Shown in pieces: positions 5,875-21,738 of a stretch of DNA of 35,499 bases. The translations under genes and the position numbers were made by a program. Under the pieces are notes generated by a model. That model was not told where the DNA came from. It was given only the letters and a program-made list of their open reading frames with translations, and searched no databases. The DNA comes from a virus. Its lineage: Duplodnaviria; Heunggongvirae; Uroviricota; Caudoviricetes. Each line of letters opens with the position of its first letter. The first letter of the stretch is position 1. The stretch is taken from the IMG/VR virus record IMGVR_UViG_2718217860_000003; one strand, 5' to 3'.

Positions 5875-6282
5875 TTATTGATGCTTGTTGCGTTTGCGAG
5901 CCTCTAATAGCTCGGTGAACAGGCGATTAAAATTCTCAACGCGGGCGCGGAGTTCGCTGAGTTGTGCTTGTTGCTCTGATTTAGGAAGTGCGCGATACAA
6001 ACGCAGCATCTCTAACTCATCTTCCGATAAGTCTAGGGTACTATCGAGTGAAACAGGGGGAGCTGGTGTTTTGTCCTCGTCGCCAAACAGTATCCAGGTT
6101 GGTGAACATTGCAATACCTCGGCGAGGCGATGCAAATTTTGCCCGCGCGGGGCTGTATGGTCACTTTCCCATAATGAAATTGATGAGCCAGATACGCCAG
6201 CAGCTTTGCTTAAACCGTTTTGACTTAAGCCTACCTGCTTACGTCTTTCTCTAATGCGTTGACCTAAAGTTTTCTCGTTCAT
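5875..6282 (-). CDS. dicA: DicA-like repressor (XRE-family HTH, CI functional analogue)
   Basis: 135-aa product from Met18 (MNEKTLGQRIRERRKQVGLSQNGLSKAAGVS...LQCSPTWILFGDEDK...), closely resembling DicA as recalled; divergent from a dicC-like gene. Confidence 0.85.
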   Translation of the reverse strand: MNEKTLGQRIRERRKQVGLSQNGLSKAAGVSGSSISLWESDHTAPRGQNLHRLAEVLQCSPTWILFGDEDKTPAPPVSLDSTLDLSEDELEMLRLYRALPKSEQQAQLSELRARVENFNRLFTELLEARKRNKHQ

Positions 6283-6332
6283 ATTTAGATATCTTAATAA
6301 TCCTTGACTTGAGATTCCTTGAGTGATTAGCA

Positions 6333-6346
6333 TTGAGAAAACTCAA
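6333..6346. promoter_or_regulatory. Operator-like palindrome TTGAGAAAACTCAA in the dicA/dicC divergent promoter region
   Basis: Perfect inverted repeat 14 nt upstream of the dicC RBS (GGAGG); same core as the site at 5798-5809. Confidence 0.55.
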
Positions 6347-6359
6347 TATTGGAGGTGCG

Positions 6360-6587
6360 ATGTTTAAATCAGACGTAATTAATTTTTACGGTACGAAAGC
6401 CAAAGTAGCGAAAGCTGCTGGCGTTGACCCATCTGCTGTTTCTCAATGGCAAGAGCTAGTTCCTGAAGGTCGCGCGATGCGTCTACAGGAGGCATCTGGC
6501 GGCGAGCTTCTGTATGATCCCAAGGTTTATGACGAATATCGTAAGACGAAGCGGGCGGGGCGGTTGAACAATGAAAATCACTCCTGA
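6360..6587 (+). CDS. dicC: DicC-like Cro-type regulator
   Basis: 75-aa product from the internal ATG (MFKSDVINFYGTKAKVAKAAGV...GRAMRLQEASGGELLYDPKVYDEYRKTKRAGRLNNENHS) with GGAGG upstream; divergent from dicA. Confidence 0.8.
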   Translation: MFKSDVINFYGTKAKVAKAAGVDPSAVSQWQELVPEGRAMRLQEASGGELLYDPKVYDEYRKTKRAGRLNNENHS

Positions 6588-7092
6588 ACAGGCTCGTGAG
6601 GCTCTGGATGCCTGGATATGTCGACCAGGAATGACACAGGAGCAGGCGACGATATTAATCACTGAAGCATTCTGGGCTTTGAAAGAGCGCCCGAACATCG
6701 ATGTTCAGCGTGTCACAGATGAAGGTGGCGCGGTTGATCAGCGAGCGCTTGGCGTTAATCGAGTGAAGATATTCGAACGCTGGAAGGCTATCGACACCAG
6801 GGATAAGCGTGAAAAGTTCACGGCGCTAGTGCCTGCAATTATGGAGGCTATCCGGATTAATGATTTCAGGTTGTATCGTGAAATTAGTGACGGAAAAAGC
6901 ATCACGTACATGATCGCCGGGTTAAACAAAGAATATGGCGATGTGGTGGAGTCCGGACTGCTTTTTGCTGATCCTGCCGTAGTGGATCGTGAAACTGACG
7001 AACTTATAGAAAAAGCAATTGCTTTCAAACTTGCGTATCGACAGCAATACCAACAAAAAGCTGGATGGAATTATGAGCCTTCTTTTTGCTGA
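6571..7092 (+). CDS. Hypothetical early protein in the CII position (possibly a YdaT-family regulatory/toxin-like protein)
   Basis: 173-aa ORF overlapping the dicC stop and the start of the O-like gene. The family assignment is from memory only. Confidence 0.6.
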   Translation: MKITPEQAREALDAWICRPGMTQEQATILITEAFWALKERPNIDVQRVTDEGGAVDQRALGVNRVKIFERWKAIDTRDKREKFTALVPAIMEAIRINDFRLYREISDGKSITYMIAGLNKEYGDVVESGLLFADPAVVDRETDELIEKAIAFKLAYRQQYQQKAGWNYEPSFC

Positions 7093-8038
7093 ACGCCCAC
7101 TGGTTATAAACACACAGCTTGCGATGAAGATTGGCTTAAATGAAGCCATTGTGTTGCAGCAGTTGCATTACTGGTTGAGAGATACCAATTCCGGCATGGA
7201 ATGTGATGGTGTTCGCTGGATTTACAACACAACGGAACAATGGCTGGAACAGTTCCCATTCTGGTCAGAGTCAACGTTAAAGCGCGCGTTTGCAAGTCTG
7301 AAAACGCTGGGGCTCTTGCGTTGTGAAAAGCTCAATAAATCAAAGCGCGATATGACCAATTTCTACACGATTAACTATGGGAGCGAGCTTTTAGATGATG
7401 GCAAATTGAGCGAATCCATCGGTTCAAAATGCGCCGCTCCATCAGGTCAAAATGACACGATGGAAGAGGTCAAAATGAAACGCTCCATTGGTTCAAAACG
7501 ACCCAATGTCATCGGGTCAAAATGGCCCGATGATCCTACAGAGAATACAACAGAGATTACTACAGAGAATAAAAACACTTTTCGTCCGGAAGCTTCGCAA
7601 CCGGACCCGCAGACGGCTGAACAGGATTTTTTAATCTGGCACCCTGGCGCAGTTGTGTTTAGTGCGAAAAAACGCCAGTGGGGTAGCCAGGAGGATCTGG
7701 CGTGTGCGCAGTGGATATGGGGGCGGATCGTGGGTCTCTACGAACAGGCCGCCAGTGATGATGGCGAGATCATGCGACCAAAAGAGCCTAACTGGACTGT
7801 CTGGGCCAATGATGTGCGCACAATGCGGATGCTGGATGGCAGAAGCCACAGACAAATTTGTGAAATGTTTGGTCGGGTACAGCGGGATCCGTTCTGGGTA
7901 AAAAACATCATGAGCCCGTCAAAGCTCCGCGAAAAATGGGACGAACTGGTCATCCGCCTGGGGCGTTCACCTGTACAGCGTTGTGTTAATCATATTTCTG
8001 AACCGGATACAGAAATTCCGCCTGGTTTCAGAGGATAA
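7073..8038 (+). CDS. Replication initiation protein (lambda O-like replisome organiser) with internal iterons
   Basis: N-terminal region resembles phage replication organiser N-domains; the gene contains five approximately 23-bp-spaced direct repeats (iterons). Start placed at ATG 7073 (MSLLFAERP...); the track ORF begins at an upstream TTG. Confidence 0.75.
   Translation: MSLLFAERPLVINTQLAMKIGLNEAIVLQQLHYWLRDTNSGMECDGVRWIYNTTEQWLEQFPFWSESTLKRAFASLKTLGLLRCEKLNKSKRDMTNFYTINYGSELLDDGKLSESIGSKCAAPSGQNDTMEEVKMKRSIGSKRPNVIGSKWPDDPTENTTEITTENKNTFRPEASQPDPQTAEQDFLIWHPGAVVFSAKKRQWGSQEDLACAQWIWGRIVGLYEQAASDDGEIMRPKEPNWTVWANDVRTMRMLDGRSHRQICEMFGRVQRDPFWVKNIMSPSKLREKWDELVIRLGRSPVQRCVNHISEPDTEIPPGFRG
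7415..7525. repeat. Iteron array (putative phage replication origin) inside the O-like gene
   Basis: Direct repeats tccatcGGTTCAAAATG / tccatcaGGTCAAAATG / GAGGTCAAAATG / tccattGGTTCAAAACG / tcatcgGGTCAAAATG starting near 7415, 7438, 7461, 7484 and 7509 (spacing about 23 bp). Confidence 0.7.
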
Positions 8039-8078: not shown

Positions 8079-8501
8079 GTGGCAAAAGTTTTTACACAAG
8101 AAGAGCGGGAAAAAATTAAAGGGCAGGTGGTGGAACTCGTGCGCCAGAGCGGTCGTGAGACGTTACGGCAACTGGAAGTCAAGACAGGTGCGACAAGATA
8201 TCTGATGAGCGTTCTCGCAAGAGAGCTGGTTGCCAGCGGCGATGTATACAACTCTGGTTACGGGTTATTCCCGTCTGAACAGGCGCGTAAGGACTGGCAA
8301 AATGCCCGTAAAAAGCTCTCAAGGGCAAAGCTGAAGGAACCATCTGCGGTTGATCCGGACCTTATCTGGTCATTACCTGACGGAGAAATACGTCGCTACG
8401 ACAGGCGTCAGAACATAATCTGTCGCGAGTGCCGGAAGAGTGAAGTTATGCAGCGCATACTAGCATTCTATCAGGGAAATGCTCGATATTTATTGAAGTG
8501 A
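8079..8501 (+). CDS. Hypothetical protein (replication-module associated), GTG start
   Basis: 140-aa ORF with RBS-like TAAGGGGGA upstream of GTG; basic, Cys-containing C-terminus. No family recognised. Confidence 0.55.
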   Translation: MAKVFTQEEREKIKGQVVELVRQSGRETLRQLEVKTGATRYLMSVLARELVASGDVYNSGYGLFPSEQARKDWQNARKKLSRAKLKEPSAVDPDLIWSLPDGEIRRYDRRQNIICRECRKSEVMQRILAFYQGNARYLLK

Positions 8502-8753: not shown

Positions 8754-9653
8754 ATGATTGATCCACTTATTAGAAACTTACAGAGTGATATTGCACTACT
8801 CCAGCTTTATATCGCGCAACGCAAACAGGCAGGCTTTCATGACATGGAAAGAATAATTGAGTCATTGACCATCTTTATGTTTCGCGCGCTGAAAATGGGT
8901 GAACTGGTAAACATGAATCAGATTAAAGTTAATTTTCCCGCCATTGATTTAGCTGATAATAAAAACATGATAGCAGTTCAAGTTACTACGAATGCAAGTC
9001 CAGCAAAAATTAAAAAAACTATCGAATCTTTTGAGGAAGCAAATGAAATAGGAGAGAGTCTGAAAGATAAATACTCTACTTTATATATTTTTGGTTTTTG
9101 TAAAGCCTCAAGATACCTAACTCCAAGTTATTGTAAAATAATCGACCCCAGCTATTTCGTGAATGAACTTTGCGATAAAGCAGATGAAGATATGGTCCAG
9201 GATATGATTGACGCCATTCGACGCCATCATGATTATACATCATTACATCCATGGAGTGATAAAGATTCACTCGAAATTATACTCAATATTATTAATCGCA
9301 ATGCAATAAAACATCGGATGAGTTGCGAAGGCAGTCTGTCTGATATGCTCACTGGTTTAAAAGAAATTAATGAAGTAATTACAAAAGGAACAATTCAACG
9401 TAAGCAACGTTCAAAATCGATATCTGACTTCAAAGATCAAAGCATGGTGAAATTTATGAGAGGTGTAATGGATGATTTGTCTGTTATTCAAGCCATAGTG
9501 AACAAATCTAAAGTTAACCAAGGTGATATGGTTTATATAAGCCATGAAGATATGATTAATATTGATAAATTAAAAGCTAAAATAGCAAGTGATTCATCAG
9601 AGATTGCAAGGCTAAATAATATTGATATAACACTAAATGTTGTTGATTTATAA
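8754..9653 (+). CDS. Hypothetical protein encoded in an AT-rich accessory island (candidate defence/abortive-infection-type protein)
   Basis: 299-aa ORF in a visibly AT-rich block; no confident family match. Convergent with the membrane protein/methyltransferase operon. Confidence 0.7.
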   Translation: MIDPLIRNLQSDIALLQLYIAQRKQAGFHDMERIIESLTIFMFRALKMGELVNMNQIKVNFPAIDLADNKNMIAVQVTTNASPAKIKKTIESFEEANEIGESLKDKYSTLYIFGFCKASRYLTPSYCKIIDPSYFVNELCDKADEDMVQDMIDAIRRHHDYTSLHPWSDKDSLEIILNIINRNAIKHRMSCEGSLSDMLTGLKEINEVITKGTIQRKQRSKSISDFKDQSMVKFMRGVMDDLSVIQAIVNKSKVNQGDMVYISHEDMINIDKLKAKIASDSSEIARLNNIDITLNVVDL

Positions 9654-9967
9654 TTGTCGATTTAGCAAAACAGAGAATGCTTTGAAAGTTTCACCGAGAA
9701 ATATTTATTGTGAACCTCCTTATTGTTTATCGACTTTTACTCTCCGCTCATTGCAGTACTGTCGGAGAAGGCTACTATGTACAAGAAGCAGCTAACATAA
9801 GCGAGCATCACTATTGATATTAGGAAGAGTATATAAAAACTTCATGCTGAACCTTACAAAAGTAGGTAAACCGGCAATGGCCTAAGTGGCAGGGTCATGT
9901 TGATCCGGCACTGCCGAGCTAATAATTAACAAGCAAATCACTCTTTCTAATAATTTGTTGAAATAAA

Positions 9968-10627
9968 CTAAATATGTATATGTTTACCAACAACCACATA
10001 TGAACTACCTGCTTTGCTCCATGATTTTATTATTTCTAAATTATTATCTGAGCATATTTTACTTACAGTATCCACATCTAATAAACCATAGTAGAAAGCA
10101 TTACGAGAGTTTTGGTATATATACCCATGCAAATGTTTAATACCGCTCTCGTACCTCTTGAAATAAGAACTTTTGTATTGATTGACAATCAGTGCTTCAC
10201 CATCACTCTTTAATAATTCTCTAATCGCACTGAGGACTTTGTGAATTGTGGATTCACATGGAATTGCGGAAAGCACGTTTGCGCAAAGTATGAAATCATA
10301 ATGATTTGTTATTTTATCTATATTTTCATAAGAAACAATATTAGCATTCTTATAGTTATTTATCACGTAATCTGGAATCGTGGTTTGTACACCTCTGATA
10401 ATTTGCACTCTTTCTAGTTGTCTTCTGGAATCTAAAAATGTCACAGTTTCAAATTTATTTACTAATTGTTCTGAATATCTAAGTTTTCCACATCCAAAAT
10501 CAAGGGCATTGCCATTTTTATTAGTGCTTTCAATCTGTTTACAGAGATAGTTAGATGGCATAGTGTGCGGTTTCGCTGCATTTTCTGAACGTATGTTTAT
10601 TCCATTTATTTTGTAATTCAAAATCAA
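9968..10627 (-). CDS. Class I SAM-dependent methyltransferase (not a recognisable DNA methyltransferase)
   Basis: 219-aa ORF with SAM-binding motif I (ALDFGCGKLRYSEQL), an acidic post-I residue (VTFLDSRRQ) and a motif II-like segment (DFILCANVLSAIP). No DPPY/NPPY or PCQ motifs. Confidence 0.75.
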   Translation of the reverse strand: MILNYKINGINIRSENAAKPHTMPSNYLCKQIESTNKNGNALDFGCGKLRYSEQLVNKFETVTFLDSRRQLERVQIIRGVQTTIPDYVINNYKNANIVSYENIDKITNHYDFILCANVLSAIPCESTIHKVLSAIRELLKSDGEALIVNQYKSSYFKRYESGIKHLHGYIYQNSRNAFYYGLLDVDTVSKICSDNNLEIIKSWSKAGSSYVVVGKHIHI

Positions 10628-10633
10628 CCTCGT

Positions 10634-11341
10634 TTAAAAAATATTGTTATTGTTAAAGAATTCTTTTATTTTGCTATCAGGTATTTGTCTTACTTGGCTT
10701 TCTGTTCTTGGTTTAACTGATGCTATGAAAATAAGGAAGTCAAATGCGACAAGAGAAATAATCCACAACCAAAGATTAATTAAAGAGCCAGTAACAGAGA
10801 ATATATTTGTTAATTTGGCGATACTTATTATTAAAATAGTAACAAATGCGATTACTGTATGTTCAAAGAAAACCCAAAAGTAATAAACTTTGTTCCAGAA
10901 AAGTTCAACGTAATGTTTGTCTTTTAACTCTTTAACTTCTGGGTAATACAGTTTACTCATTACCTTGTGAGATTCATCAGTAGTTAATTTTCTCGTAACG
11001 CCTGCAATTTTTGCTAATGGTTTAATAATTAAATGACTATCCCACATCTTCCTTATTCCAATAATTTTTGCTACATTATTATGTAGATCTAAAGCTCCAC
11101 TAATTACTGACCAAAAAACTGAAGATGCAATTGGTAATATGCCAAAGGTTAATATCCATTTAATAAATTCCTCGTAGTCTTTAACGGGGGGGATATACTT
11201 GGCATTAATGCCAACCAATGGCATGTAGCCATAAATGACTAATGATAGGTAAAATATAAATGTAGTAATAAAAGTCGCCTTATGGAGCATAGGCAACATT
11301 TCATTATAACTCTTTGGTGGTTCTAACATTTTACTCTCCAA
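10634..11341 (-). CDS. Integral membrane protein (about 4 predicted TM helices), function unknown; forms an operon with the downstream methyltransferase
   Basis: 235-aa ORF with several long hydrophobic stretches; its stop lies 6 bp from the methyltransferase start on the same strand. Confidence 0.7.
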   Translation of the reverse strand: MESKMLEPPKSYNEMLPMLHKATFITTFIFYLSLVIYGYMPLVGINAKYIPPVKDYEEFIKWILTFGILPIASSVFWSVISGALDLHNNVAKIIGIRKMWDSHLIIKPLAKIAGVTRKLTTDESHKVMSKLYYPEVKELKDKHYVELFWNKVYYFWVFFEHTVIAFVTILIISIAKLTNIFSVTGSLINLWLWIISLVAFDFLIFIASVKPRTESQVRQIPDSKIKEFFNNNNIF

Positions 11342-16695: not shown

Positions 16696-17124
16696 ATGGG
16701 TTTTCGTAGCGCATCAATTCTTACGTTGATTATTAGTGGGATTATTATCGGGTGCACTGATGCTGTATCGACAAATTATCATGACCGTACATCATATTAC
16801 TCCGATAAAGCAATAGAGACACAGTATGTGAGTTCATCTGAACGTACTTCTGATGTTAGTGAGGATATCCGTCTGTATGCCCATCAAATCAAGAGCGCCA
16901 TCGAAAAACAGTTCGGGGATGCGAGTAAGTATTCAGGAAAAGAGTGTACACTGAGAATGCATATGGCCCCGAATGGCCTTCTACTGGAGGTTAAAAGAGA
17001 AAGTGGAGACCTCGATTTATGTCGTGAAGCGATGAATGCGATAAAGAATGCTGATATACCTGCCCCCCCTTCGCCGGAAGTATATAAAGTATTTCAAAAT
17101 GGGGTGCTGGATTTTAAACCCTGA
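16696..17124 (+). CDS. Lipoprotein with a TolA C-terminal (domain III)-like domain
   Basis: 142-aa ORF; lipobox LIISGIIIGC; C-terminal segment (YAHQIKSAIEKQFGDASKYSGKECTLRMHMAPNGLLLEVKRESGDLDLCREAMNAIKNADIPAPPSPEVYKVFQNGVLDFKP) closely parallels the E. coli TolA domain III sequence as recalled. Confidence 0.8.
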   Translation: MGFRSASILTLIISGIIIGCTDAVSTNYHDRTSYYSDKAIETQYVSSSERTSDVSEDIRLYAHQIKSAIEKQFGDASKYSGKECTLRMHMAPNGLLLEVKRESGDLDLCREAMNAIKNADIPAPPSPEVYKVFQNGVLDFKP

Positions 17125-17274: not shown

Positions 17275-17670
17275 GTGGGATTAAAGAAAATCGTTATGTT
17301 GACTTTTTGGGTCGGTTTTGTTGCGGGATGCACACCTTTACACCCTTCAGATTGCCACAAAACTACTGCTACAGGTAGTTGCAGTTCAGGACGCTGGGAT
17401 GATCAGGATGAATGGGGGGCGCAAGCGCGGGGAATCAGAGCTGCAATTAATGCCAAACTTGATGAGCCGCATAACTGGAAAGGGAAAATATGCAGGTTGC
17501 ATATGGAATTCTCTCAGGATGGCACGGCGTTAAAAATATCTACCAGTAACGGTGATAAAGCCTATTGCGAAGCGATAAAGTCCGCAGCTCATAAAGCCAA
17601 ATTTCCGGCCTTCAACAATCCGAAAGTCTACAGAGATTTTCAGAAATCTGGCTTTGACATGCGAGGTTAG
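17275..17670 (+). CDS. Second, divergent lipoprotein with a TolA domain III-like C-terminus (paralogue of the upstream gene)
   Basis: 131-aa ORF; lipobox VGFVAGC; shares KxCxLHM...G..L...........C.A...A.......P....VY..FQ spacing with the upstream protein and TolA-III. Confidence 0.7.
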   Translation: MGLKKIVMLTFWVGFVAGCTPLHPSDCHKTTATGSCSSGRWDDQDEWGAQARGIRAAINAKLDEPHNWKGKICRLHMEFSQDGTALKISTSNGDKAYCEAIKSAAHKAKFPAFNNPKVYRDFQKSGFDMRG

Positions 17671-21638: not shown

Positions 21639-21738
21639 NNNNNNNNNNNNNNNNNNNNNNNNNNNNNNNNNNNNNNNNNNNNNNNNNNNNNNNNNNNNNN
21701 NNNNNNNNNNNNNNNNNNNNNNNNNNNNNNNNNNNNNN
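21639..21738. other. Assembly gap (100 N) between terminase and tail gene M
   Basis: Run of 100 ambiguous bases; terminase-large through tail gene H are absent from the window. Confidence 0.99.

Follow-up and report, generated by a model that had tools for sequence, protein, structure and literature searches.

The closest described counterpart of the replication locus analyzed here is the origin of phage lambda, in which iterons lie inside the initiator gene O, in the linker that joins the DNA-binding N-domain to the C-domain, and in which the genes follow the order cI, cro, cII-like, O, P, ren-like. We examined the equivalent region of a 35,499-nucleotide virus record, IMG/VR IMGVR_UViG_2718217860_000003 (Caudoviricetes; the whole stretch is called the window below), where an O-like replication initiator gene carries a repeat array within its own coding sequence and ends like E. 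coli DnaT. Three further systems served for comparison. The O-only modules are found in 34 of 314 enterobacterial lambdoid phages, which have an O homologue alone and whose replication "is not yet understood" (Zheng, Casjens et al., Genome Res 2025, PMC12315714); that paper describes neither the origin nor a DnaT-like tail and does not contain the terms DnaC, DnaB or PriA. In the DnaT-DnaC pair and in YdaU-YdaV-YdaW of the Rac prophage, the gene of a protein with the end ...PDxxIPPGFRG lies 2-6 nt before that of a DnaC-family loader. Finally, the RepA_N plasmid initiators and the "replisome organiser" or DnaD-like initiators of Gram-positive phages combine a winged-helix N-domain with a repeat origin in their own gene.

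The window resembles lambda in the placement of its iterons, in palindromic units with a common central TCAAAAYG at a spacing of 20-24 bp, in the A-rich tract downstream, in a homologous C-domain and in gene order, and the statement of an earlier note on this DNA that the array mirrors lambda ori in gene O was borne out by the equivalent position, the common TCAAAAYG and the A-rich stretch. It differs from lambda in having an N-domain of another family (no Phage_rep_O), six 23-bp units rather than four of ~18-19 bp, an A-rich tract ordered as a 12-nt tandem array, no P gene (a sister gene, P0034 at locus L410, has one) and an initiator ending in IPPGFRG, where lambda O ends in NTDWIYGVDL. With a single O homologue and neither helicase nor loader, it belongs to the O-only class; the O-only phage LLS was compared in PMC12315714 with mEp460_4F5, whose initiator was analyzed in this study. 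Like the Rac module, the window has a DUF977 gene following, and it differs from DnaT and Rac in lacking a DnaC-family gene and in that the body of YdaU is an unrelated DUF1376. Among Gram-positive systems, the initiator of the S. aureus 42E type has an N-domain ~50% identical to that of the window and matching 22-23-bp repeats in its gene, and it differs in its DnaB_2 C-domain and in having its own loader and DnaB-like helicase.

The iterons very probably represent the replication origin of a lambdoid prophage located inside the gene of its own initiator. The best explanation overall, in which this origin is combined with a host helicase loader recruited by the initiator tail, we regard as fairly probable, a grade that is a compromise between those of its two parts.

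The iteron array and the adjacent A-rich repeats

The elements of the initiator gene are as follows (aa, amino acids):

7073-8038, + strand: O-like replication initiator gene, 321 aa (open reading frame [ORF] list; PHROG 391)
7073-7390, + strand: N-terminal winged-helix-like domain, aa ~1-105 (predicted structure, weak fold matches)
7394-7416, + strand: degenerate iteron 0, GATGATGGCAAATTGAGCGAATC, in register with the array
7417-7532, + strand: five 23-nt iterons, starting at 7417, 7440, 7463, 7486 and 7510; consensus CATCGGGTCAAAATGACCCGATG
7536-7574, + strand: three tandem 12-nt units, CTACAGAGAATA / CAACAGAGATTA / CTACAGAGAATA, inside an A-rich tract at 7533-7580
7640-7966, + strand: C-terminal helical domain, aa ~190-298 (homology to the lambda O C-domain)
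7976-8035, + strand: DnaT-like C-terminal tail, aa 302-321, QRCVNHISEPDTEIPPGFRG-COOH (match to the end of E. coli DnaT)

A repeat search recovered five in-register copies, spaced by 23, 23, 23 and 24 nt and 70-100% identical to the reference copy, which confirmed the five iterons of ~23 bp that the earlier note had placed inside the O-like gene; the limits given there for the array (7415-7525) were corrected to those listed above, and a degenerate sixth copy, iteron 0, was added, whose counterpart is well formed in mEp460_4F5 and in Klebsiella phage phi7.2. The core GKTCAAAAYG was present exactly five times in the 35.5-kb window, always within the array, against an expected number of 0.48, and none of 100 shuffled sequences reached five. 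The two core spellings proposed earlier differ in register only. An alternative pattern, GGTYCAAAAYG, yielded three copies, which was not above chance, and was replaced by GKTCAAAAYG; it had missed copies because these differ by one base of register. In a self-similarity scan of the gene over lags of 8-40, the maximum was found at lag 23 for gene nucleotides 310-449 (z = 7.2), and the iteron consensus was self-complementary at 20 of its 23 positions, compared with a mean of 5.6 (sd 3.1) for random 23-mers of the window.

The array spans aa 108-154, in the linker between the two folded domains. Its copies begin at codon positions 3, 2, 1, 3 and 3, that is, in all three reading frames, indicating that the DNA is repeated rather than a peptide. 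The SIGSK-type peptide motifs attributed to the array in the earlier note were accordingly found in part: three of the five copies encode (S/V)IGSK, while copies 2 and 3 read SGQND and EEVKM.

A natural variant of the initiator, the 290-aa protein P0020, lacks exactly 31 aa (93 nt; alignment columns 116-146, window 7417-7509). Iterons 1-4 are thereby lost in frame, which recombination between units of the array would be expected to produce, and the deletion resembles the classical in-frame ori-minus deletions of lambda.

The AT-rich element for which a search next to the iterons had been suggested was found directly 3' of them and contains the least stable duplex of the gene, as shown by the 40-bp windows of lowest stability, which begin at 7536-7544. 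The GC content is 0.30 at 7540-7579, the AT skew of the A-rich stretch is 0.57, and the motif ACAGAGAWTA occurs three times in the 12-nt array and once elsewhere in the window, with 0.10 occurrences expected. The array is listed here as a candidate DNA-unwinding or helicase-entry element. The additional exact core of the 12-mer, ACAGAGAATA at 10794-10803, lies in the region of the ORF at 10634-11341 and is probably due to chance.

Taken together, these elements suggest an order of events in which dimers of the N-terminal winged-helix domain would bind the iterons, the bound initiator would form an O-some-like complex, this complex would strain the adjacent A-rich array open, and the C-terminal part of the initiator would then bring the replicative helicase.

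A composite initiator and selection on its repeats

The initiator starts with the ATG at 7073, so that its first 20 nt lie within the YdaT/cII-like gene upstream. Its identification as an O-like initiator, made in the earlier note, is corroborated by a match to PHROG 391, "replication initiation O-like" (E = 5.4e-91), and by its C-domain, since BLASTP aligned initiator residues 147-294 with lambda O residues 135-270 at 34% identity (E = 3e-27). For this domain, tblastn matched the O proteins of lambda, phi80 (gp15) and Stx phages, and it was modelled as helical with predicted local distance difference test (pLDDT) scores of 65-83. The first 116 residues showed no similarity to lambda O. In the Pfam search, Phage_rep_O (PF04492), which lambda O matches at 5.7e-36, was missing from the window initiator; the full-length protein gave no Pfam match, nor did the isolated N-domain even at E <= 10, and the Pfam and NCBIfam searches taken together matched the C-terminal tail alone, as did a search of PDB sequences apart from a spurious YteR match.

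The AlphaFold model consists of a winged-helix-like N-domain (aa 10-101), a linker (aa 85-175), a helical C-domain (aa 183-295) and a low-confidence tail. The linker, with pLDDT below 50, covers both the iterons and the 12-mer array. For the N-domain, the predicted topology is H-H-E-E-H-H-E-E (pLDDT 58-75), and its best fold matches, all weak, were the N-domain of plasmid RepA and its complex with iteron DNA (4pql/5kbj; E = 0.02-0.06), a likeness to RepA_N initiators that is not significant. The N-domain is the presumed iteron-binding domain, a role to which the DNA-level conservation of the repeats and their covariation with the N-domain (below) lend indirect support. The initiator is chimeric and composed of three parts: a non-lambda N-domain is joined to a C-domain of the lambda-O type and to a tail of the DnaT type, and the N-domain places the protein outside Pfam Phage_rep_O.

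Relatives of the N-domain were detected by tblastn against phage records in Klebsiella, Erwinia, Pseudomonas, Staphylococcus, Listeria, Bacillus and Geobacillus phages at about 50-75% identity, with ~50% identity to the N-termini of the Staphylococcus, Listeria, Bacillus and Geobacillus phage initiators. The family comprises 10,352 representative clusters at E <= 0.001, and the copy of Pfam-A that was searched holds no model for it. Two matched stretches occur in some relatives of 400-880 aa. A search of viral contigs with the N-domain alone returned only copies 99-100% identical to it, which are uninformative on conservation.

The repeats of five homologous genes were then as follows:

Klebsiella phi7.2: six repeat units, core GGTCAAAATGA
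mEp460_4F5: six repeat units, core GGTCAAAATGA
Erwinia PEp14: five repeat units, core GGGCAAATTGCCC
Pseudomonas 8P: five repeat units, core GGGCAwwwwGC
S. aureus 42E: three repeat units, core GGACAAAATGGCCCGA

All five of the examined homologues have 22-24-nt repeats directly after the N-domain, and in these genes as well as in lambda O a lag of 22-24 is the strongest periodicity of the whole gene, at the same position. The lack of conservation in homologues that, by the earlier note, would have refuted the origin was thus not observed; the repeats are kept as far as a Staphylococcus phage, the DNA periodicity being maintained between genes that are only ~50% identical as protein. The iteron variants covary with the N-domain, reading GGTCAAAATGAC in E. 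coli and Klebsiella phages, GGGCAAATTGCCC in PEp14, GGGCAwwwwGC in 8P and GGACAAAATGGCC in 42E. The 12-nt array, ACAGAGAnTAC, is likewise kept in the Klebsiella, Erwinia and Pseudomonas phages, even in the Pseudomonas gene of 60% GC, and the Staphylococcus phage has one copy. Since the C-domains of these relatives differ (Phg_2220_C in phi7.2 and DnaB_2 in 42E) while the repeats stay, the iterons and 12-mer array form one module with the N-domain. The same five iterons and three 12-mers recur in phage HannyBb, a genome deposited as complete, which contains no others. Two relatives from Citrobacter and Salmonella (P0100 and P0119) contain one extra TTEN/TTES unit and hence four 12-nt units instead of three.

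Conservation at third codon positions was determined for 19 dereplicated genes of the window type, using a BLAST-anchored, codon-threaded alignment, and gave the following values:

N-domain: 0.79
Iteron zone: 0.93
12-mer zone: 0.96
C-domain: 0.72

Invariant third positions made up 56% of the origin zone, compared with 11% of the N-domain and 5% of the C-domain (Mann-Whitney p = 2e-11 and 4e-16). This invariance indicated selection on the DNA itself, and it is this DNA-level selection, together with the homology to lambda, that makes the origin reading strong.

The DnaT-like tail and proposed recruitment of the helicase

In the window, tblastn queries with P of lambda, DnaC of E. coli and the loader and DnaB-like helicase of 42E yielded nothing better than E ~0.4, and the loader families PF06992 (P) and PF01695 (DnaC/IstB) were not found by Pfam among its ORFs, in agreement with the earlier remark that no P- or DnaC-like gene is recognizable. 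The complete HannyBb genome also has no P, DnaC or DnaB homologue. The position of P in lambda is occupied here by the following gene:

8079-8501, + strand: DUF977 / LygF / "Ren-like" gene, 140 aa (Pfam DUF977, E = 1.7e-30; PHROG 142, "Ren-like exclusion protein")

The tail of the initiator offers a possible link to a loader of the host. The protein ends in ...SEPDTEIPPGFRG, matching the extreme C-terminus of E. coli DnaT; over QRCVNHISEPDTEIPPGFRG, 14 of 20 residues are identical and 18 of 20 similar to DnaT residues 160-179 (of 179), with E = 9e-8, and both segments stand at the C-terminus. In the searches of solved structures (PDB) and of NCBIfam, the last ~20 residues alone matched, in both cases to DnaT; the NCBIfam model NF002770 scored 16.3 bits against a cut-off of 201 and aligned at profile positions 160-179 only. 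The DNA-binding domain of DnaT (PF17948) was not matched in the initiator, and in profile-profile comparison (hhalign) the similarity was confined to the last 22 columns, so that homology of the whole C-domain to DnaT, which had been considered, was not detectable. As the match is restricted to the tail, "Primosomal protein I" is wrong as a family assignment and the protein is not a DnaT. Among the DnaT orthologues, 84 of 105 end in IPPGFRG and the rest mostly in IPxGFRG. A literature search for "PGFRG" returned, among the matches listed, none concerning DnaT or phage, and no use of the term "initiator-solo" was found.

A scan of viral contigs for genes with IPPGFRG or IPAGFRG directly before the stop codon then gave at least 240 loci. 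Among the matches listed, 239 close real ORFs, and the 211 tail-bearing ORFs of at least 200 aa fall into at least 21 clusters with unrelated bodies, including the window type, HTH_36-like, replisome-organiser-like, DUF1376/YdaU-like, lambda-O-N-like and other bodies. Downstream DNA of at least 2.5 kb was available for 149 tail-bearing initiators among these listed matches; a DnaC homologue, 47-54% identical to host DnaC, lies 2-6 nt 3' of 42 of them and is absent downstream of the other 107, and a P-type loader or helicase follows none of the 149. In representatives of the clusters without a loader, the next gene is PerC-like, RuvC, Dam or Rha. Initiators with identical last 60 aa were observed at 10 loci with a dnaC-like gene and at 8 loci without one. 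Those ending in ...YDNVDYSQIPAGFRG (L085, 3451-3939, and many loci of the IPAGFRG type) were loader-less in every sampled locus, and the IPAGFRG-type initiators typically precede a PerC-domain protein of ~160 aa, not DUF977.

In the reverse direction, a tail-bearing gene precedes all 73 of the phage dnaC-like genes examined, and as a control the tail is missing from all 75 genes located upstream of P-type loaders (loci L411-L490). Most initiators before P-type loaders end in ...NTDW(I/A)xG(V/L)..., like lambda O (TNTDWIYGVDL), even with different bodies, and this end may be the P-specific counterpart of the DnaT-like tail. For P0034, which joins a body of the window type to a lambda-O-like end (...DWNSADGWEDVL), a P-type loader was predicted in advance and then found: at L410, a PF06992 gene overlaps its stop codon, and a DUF977 gene comes next. 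In the Rac prophage of K-12, YdaU ends in ...LPDSAIPPGFRG, and YdaV, 50% identical to DnaC, starts 6 nt later; host dnaT and dnaC are juxtaposed in the same way as ydaU and ydaV.

Where lambda O brings the helicase through the phage loader P, the window initiator, having no phage loader, would use its tail, ...SEPDTEIPPGFRG, to recruit DnaB-DnaC of the host, with DnaC or DnaB-DnaC as the direct partner. Such recruitment would allow the host loader to replace P as well as the facultative phage DnaC homologue. The earlier suggestion that the loader is host-supplied or novel would then resolve in favor of a host-supplied one, to which the association between tail and loader points. From comparison across loci, we consider this step from tail to DnaC evenly balanced, about as strong a case as can be made for as against it.

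Several observations weigh against the combination of origin and tail-recruited loader. The A-rich stretch is only moderately unstable, with 3.7% of the 40-bp windows of the whole stretch being equally or more unstable. The fold search of the model gave generic winged-helix matches, none at E <= 0.001, and the AlphaFold model itself is of moderate quality (mean pLDDT 56.5). The sampled dnaC-like genes share 84-100% identity with a single query and the loci are heavily redundant enterobacterial prophages, so the counts overstate the number of independent events, and the tail-DnaC association could reflect linkage; the diversity of bodies (21 clusters among the matches listed, of which nine include a dnaC-like gene) and the swap in P0034 weigh against pure linkage. 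DnaT without residues 154-179 was reported to show weaker cooperative binding of single-stranded DNA (PMC4132743). For the preprimosome, the recruitment of DnaB/DnaC "remains unknown", and the DnaT N-domain was suggested by the authors (PMC13377028).

The main rival explanation accepts the origin and assigns the tail to the PriA restart primosome, where it would dock on PriA/PriB or hold single-stranded DNA, with DnaB-DnaC entering by normal restart, or else takes replication to be mainly recombination-dependent. It draws on the preprimosome structure, in which the C-terminal domain of DnaT docks on PriA (PMC13377028), on the contribution of the DnaT C-terminal segment to cooperative binding of single-stranded DNA (PMC4132743) and on the better growth of the O-only lambdoid phage LLS with RecBCD (PMC12315714). 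However, the initiator has in common with DnaT the last ~20 residues only, not the three-helix DNA-binding bundle or the PriB-binding linker, the window prophage has its own exonuclease region and is not obviously of the LLS type, and a tail that is tied to DnaC-type loaders and excluded from P-type modules fits better with a loader-specific contact. We therefore rate the PriA route as unlikely, albeit ahead of the other alternatives.

It is improbable that the origin and initiator of this copy are the inactive relic of a defective prophage. The window does jump from the lysis genes to the tail genes L-J without head genes, and in-frame iteron deletions occur naturally in relatives, as in P0020. 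Yet the six repeat units and the ORF are all intact, many E. coli chromosomes contain the module at 100% identity, that of the complete phage HannyBb is 97% identical to it, and the gap in the head genes coincides with a run of 100 N, a scaffold gap at 21639-21738 inside a DUF1441 ORF region, flanked by lysis and Nu1-like genes on one side and by the tail genes L-J on the other. Because of this coincidence, the apparent loss may be an assembly artefact, and the missing morphogenesis genes may reflect an assembly join, not a real deletion.

A role for the 140-aa DUF977 protein as a novel loader that replaces P is still less probable, even though its gene lies immediately 3' of the initiator, in the place of P in lambda, and DUF977 and the tail move together as one mosaic unit in several phages. 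The protein, called unknown in the earlier note, is now identified: it matches PF06163 over residues 1-135 with 106.2 bits (cut-off 22.1), groups with lambda Ren, with which it has a C-terminal motif in common, and shows no similarity to lambda P. DUF977 follows P-type (L410), DnaC-type (L205 and Rac ydaV-ydaW) and loader-less modules alike and is therefore not the loader, and many tail-bearing solo initiators have a PerC-like, Dam, RuvC or Rha gene next instead.

That the repeats are a protein-level SIGSK repeat, or the product of chance or slippage in a low-complexity linker, with no DNA function, is scarcely credible, given that the three (S/V)IGSK copies and the poor conservation and low model confidence of the linker are set against copies in three frames, which contradict it, synonymous sites more conserved than in the folded domains, a palindrome in every unit and a DNA periodicity that outlasts the divergence of the proteins.

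Prophage context and implications

The window is an E. coli lambdoid prophage, 100% identical to many E. coli chromosomes, and similar sequence is present in 4,228 of 5,426 complete E. coli genomes. The phages mEp460_ev081 and HannyBb have 96-97% nucleotide identity to the initiator gene and the window. The genes stand in the order integrase, exonuclease, DicB, cI-like repressor, Cro-like, YdaT/cII-like and initiator, followed by DUF977, a SMEK-domain gene, DUF968, RusA, Q, lysis genes and tail genes. The neighbors of the replication module are listed below; Pfam matches for the region upstream include HTH_3, P22_Cro and YdaT_toxin.

5875-6333, - strand: cI-like repressor
6333-6587, + strand: Cro-like gene
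6571-7092, + strand: YdaT/cII-like gene (Pfam YdaT_toxin; PHROG "CII-like transcriptional activator")
8754-9653, + strand: SMEK_N-domain protein
9968-10627, - strand: methyltransferase
10634-11341, - strand: 235-aa ORF without Pfam match

By analogy with lambda and from this gene order, rightward early transcription would cross the origin. The three genes at 8754-11341, between the replication module and the nin-like region, are replaced by other genes in HannyBb and mEp460 and may form a variable accessory or defence island. Just 5' of the lysis genes, two adjacent ORFs (16696-17124 and 17275-17670) both contain a TolA C-terminal domain (E = 2e-23 and 4e-14). In public records, the gene at 7073-8038 goes under several names: PGAP calls it "hypothetical protein" in most E. 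coli genomes, RAST-style phage records have "Primosomal protein I", and "replication initiation O-like" is used elsewhere. The upstream cII-like gene is labelled "toxin YdaT family protein". The present analysis corrects these misleading names, namely, "Primosomal protein I" for the initiator and the "toxin" and "hypothetical" labels around it.

The origin as such is a routine variation on lambda. Its value lies in providing an origin, an iteron consensus and a candidate unwinding element for an initiator family that has no Pfam annotation and spans Gram-negative and Gram-positive phages. The wider proposal, which we put forward tentatively and with somewhat less confidence than the tail-to-DnaC step itself, is that ...PDxxIPxGFRG-COOH is a portable docking motif for a DnaC-family loader or for DnaB-DnaC, found alike in host DnaT and in at least 21 families of phage initiators, that the dnaT-dnaC operon is a domesticated cassette of "initiator tail plus loader", that the ...NTDWxxG... 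end is the docking motif for P-type loaders, and that O-only phages are DnaT mimics. If this is true, the tail of DnaT would bring DnaB-DnaC to restart sites, a step that the field calls unknown, and at least 21 unrelated phage initiator families would use the same tail for a phage-encoded or host DnaC. Two open questions are touched by the proposal, the replication of O-only lambdoid phages (PMC12315714) and the recruitment of DnaB-DnaC by DnaT and the preprimosome (PMC13377028, PMC11087952), and the common tail, with its strict association with loader type, turns both into one peptide-level problem.

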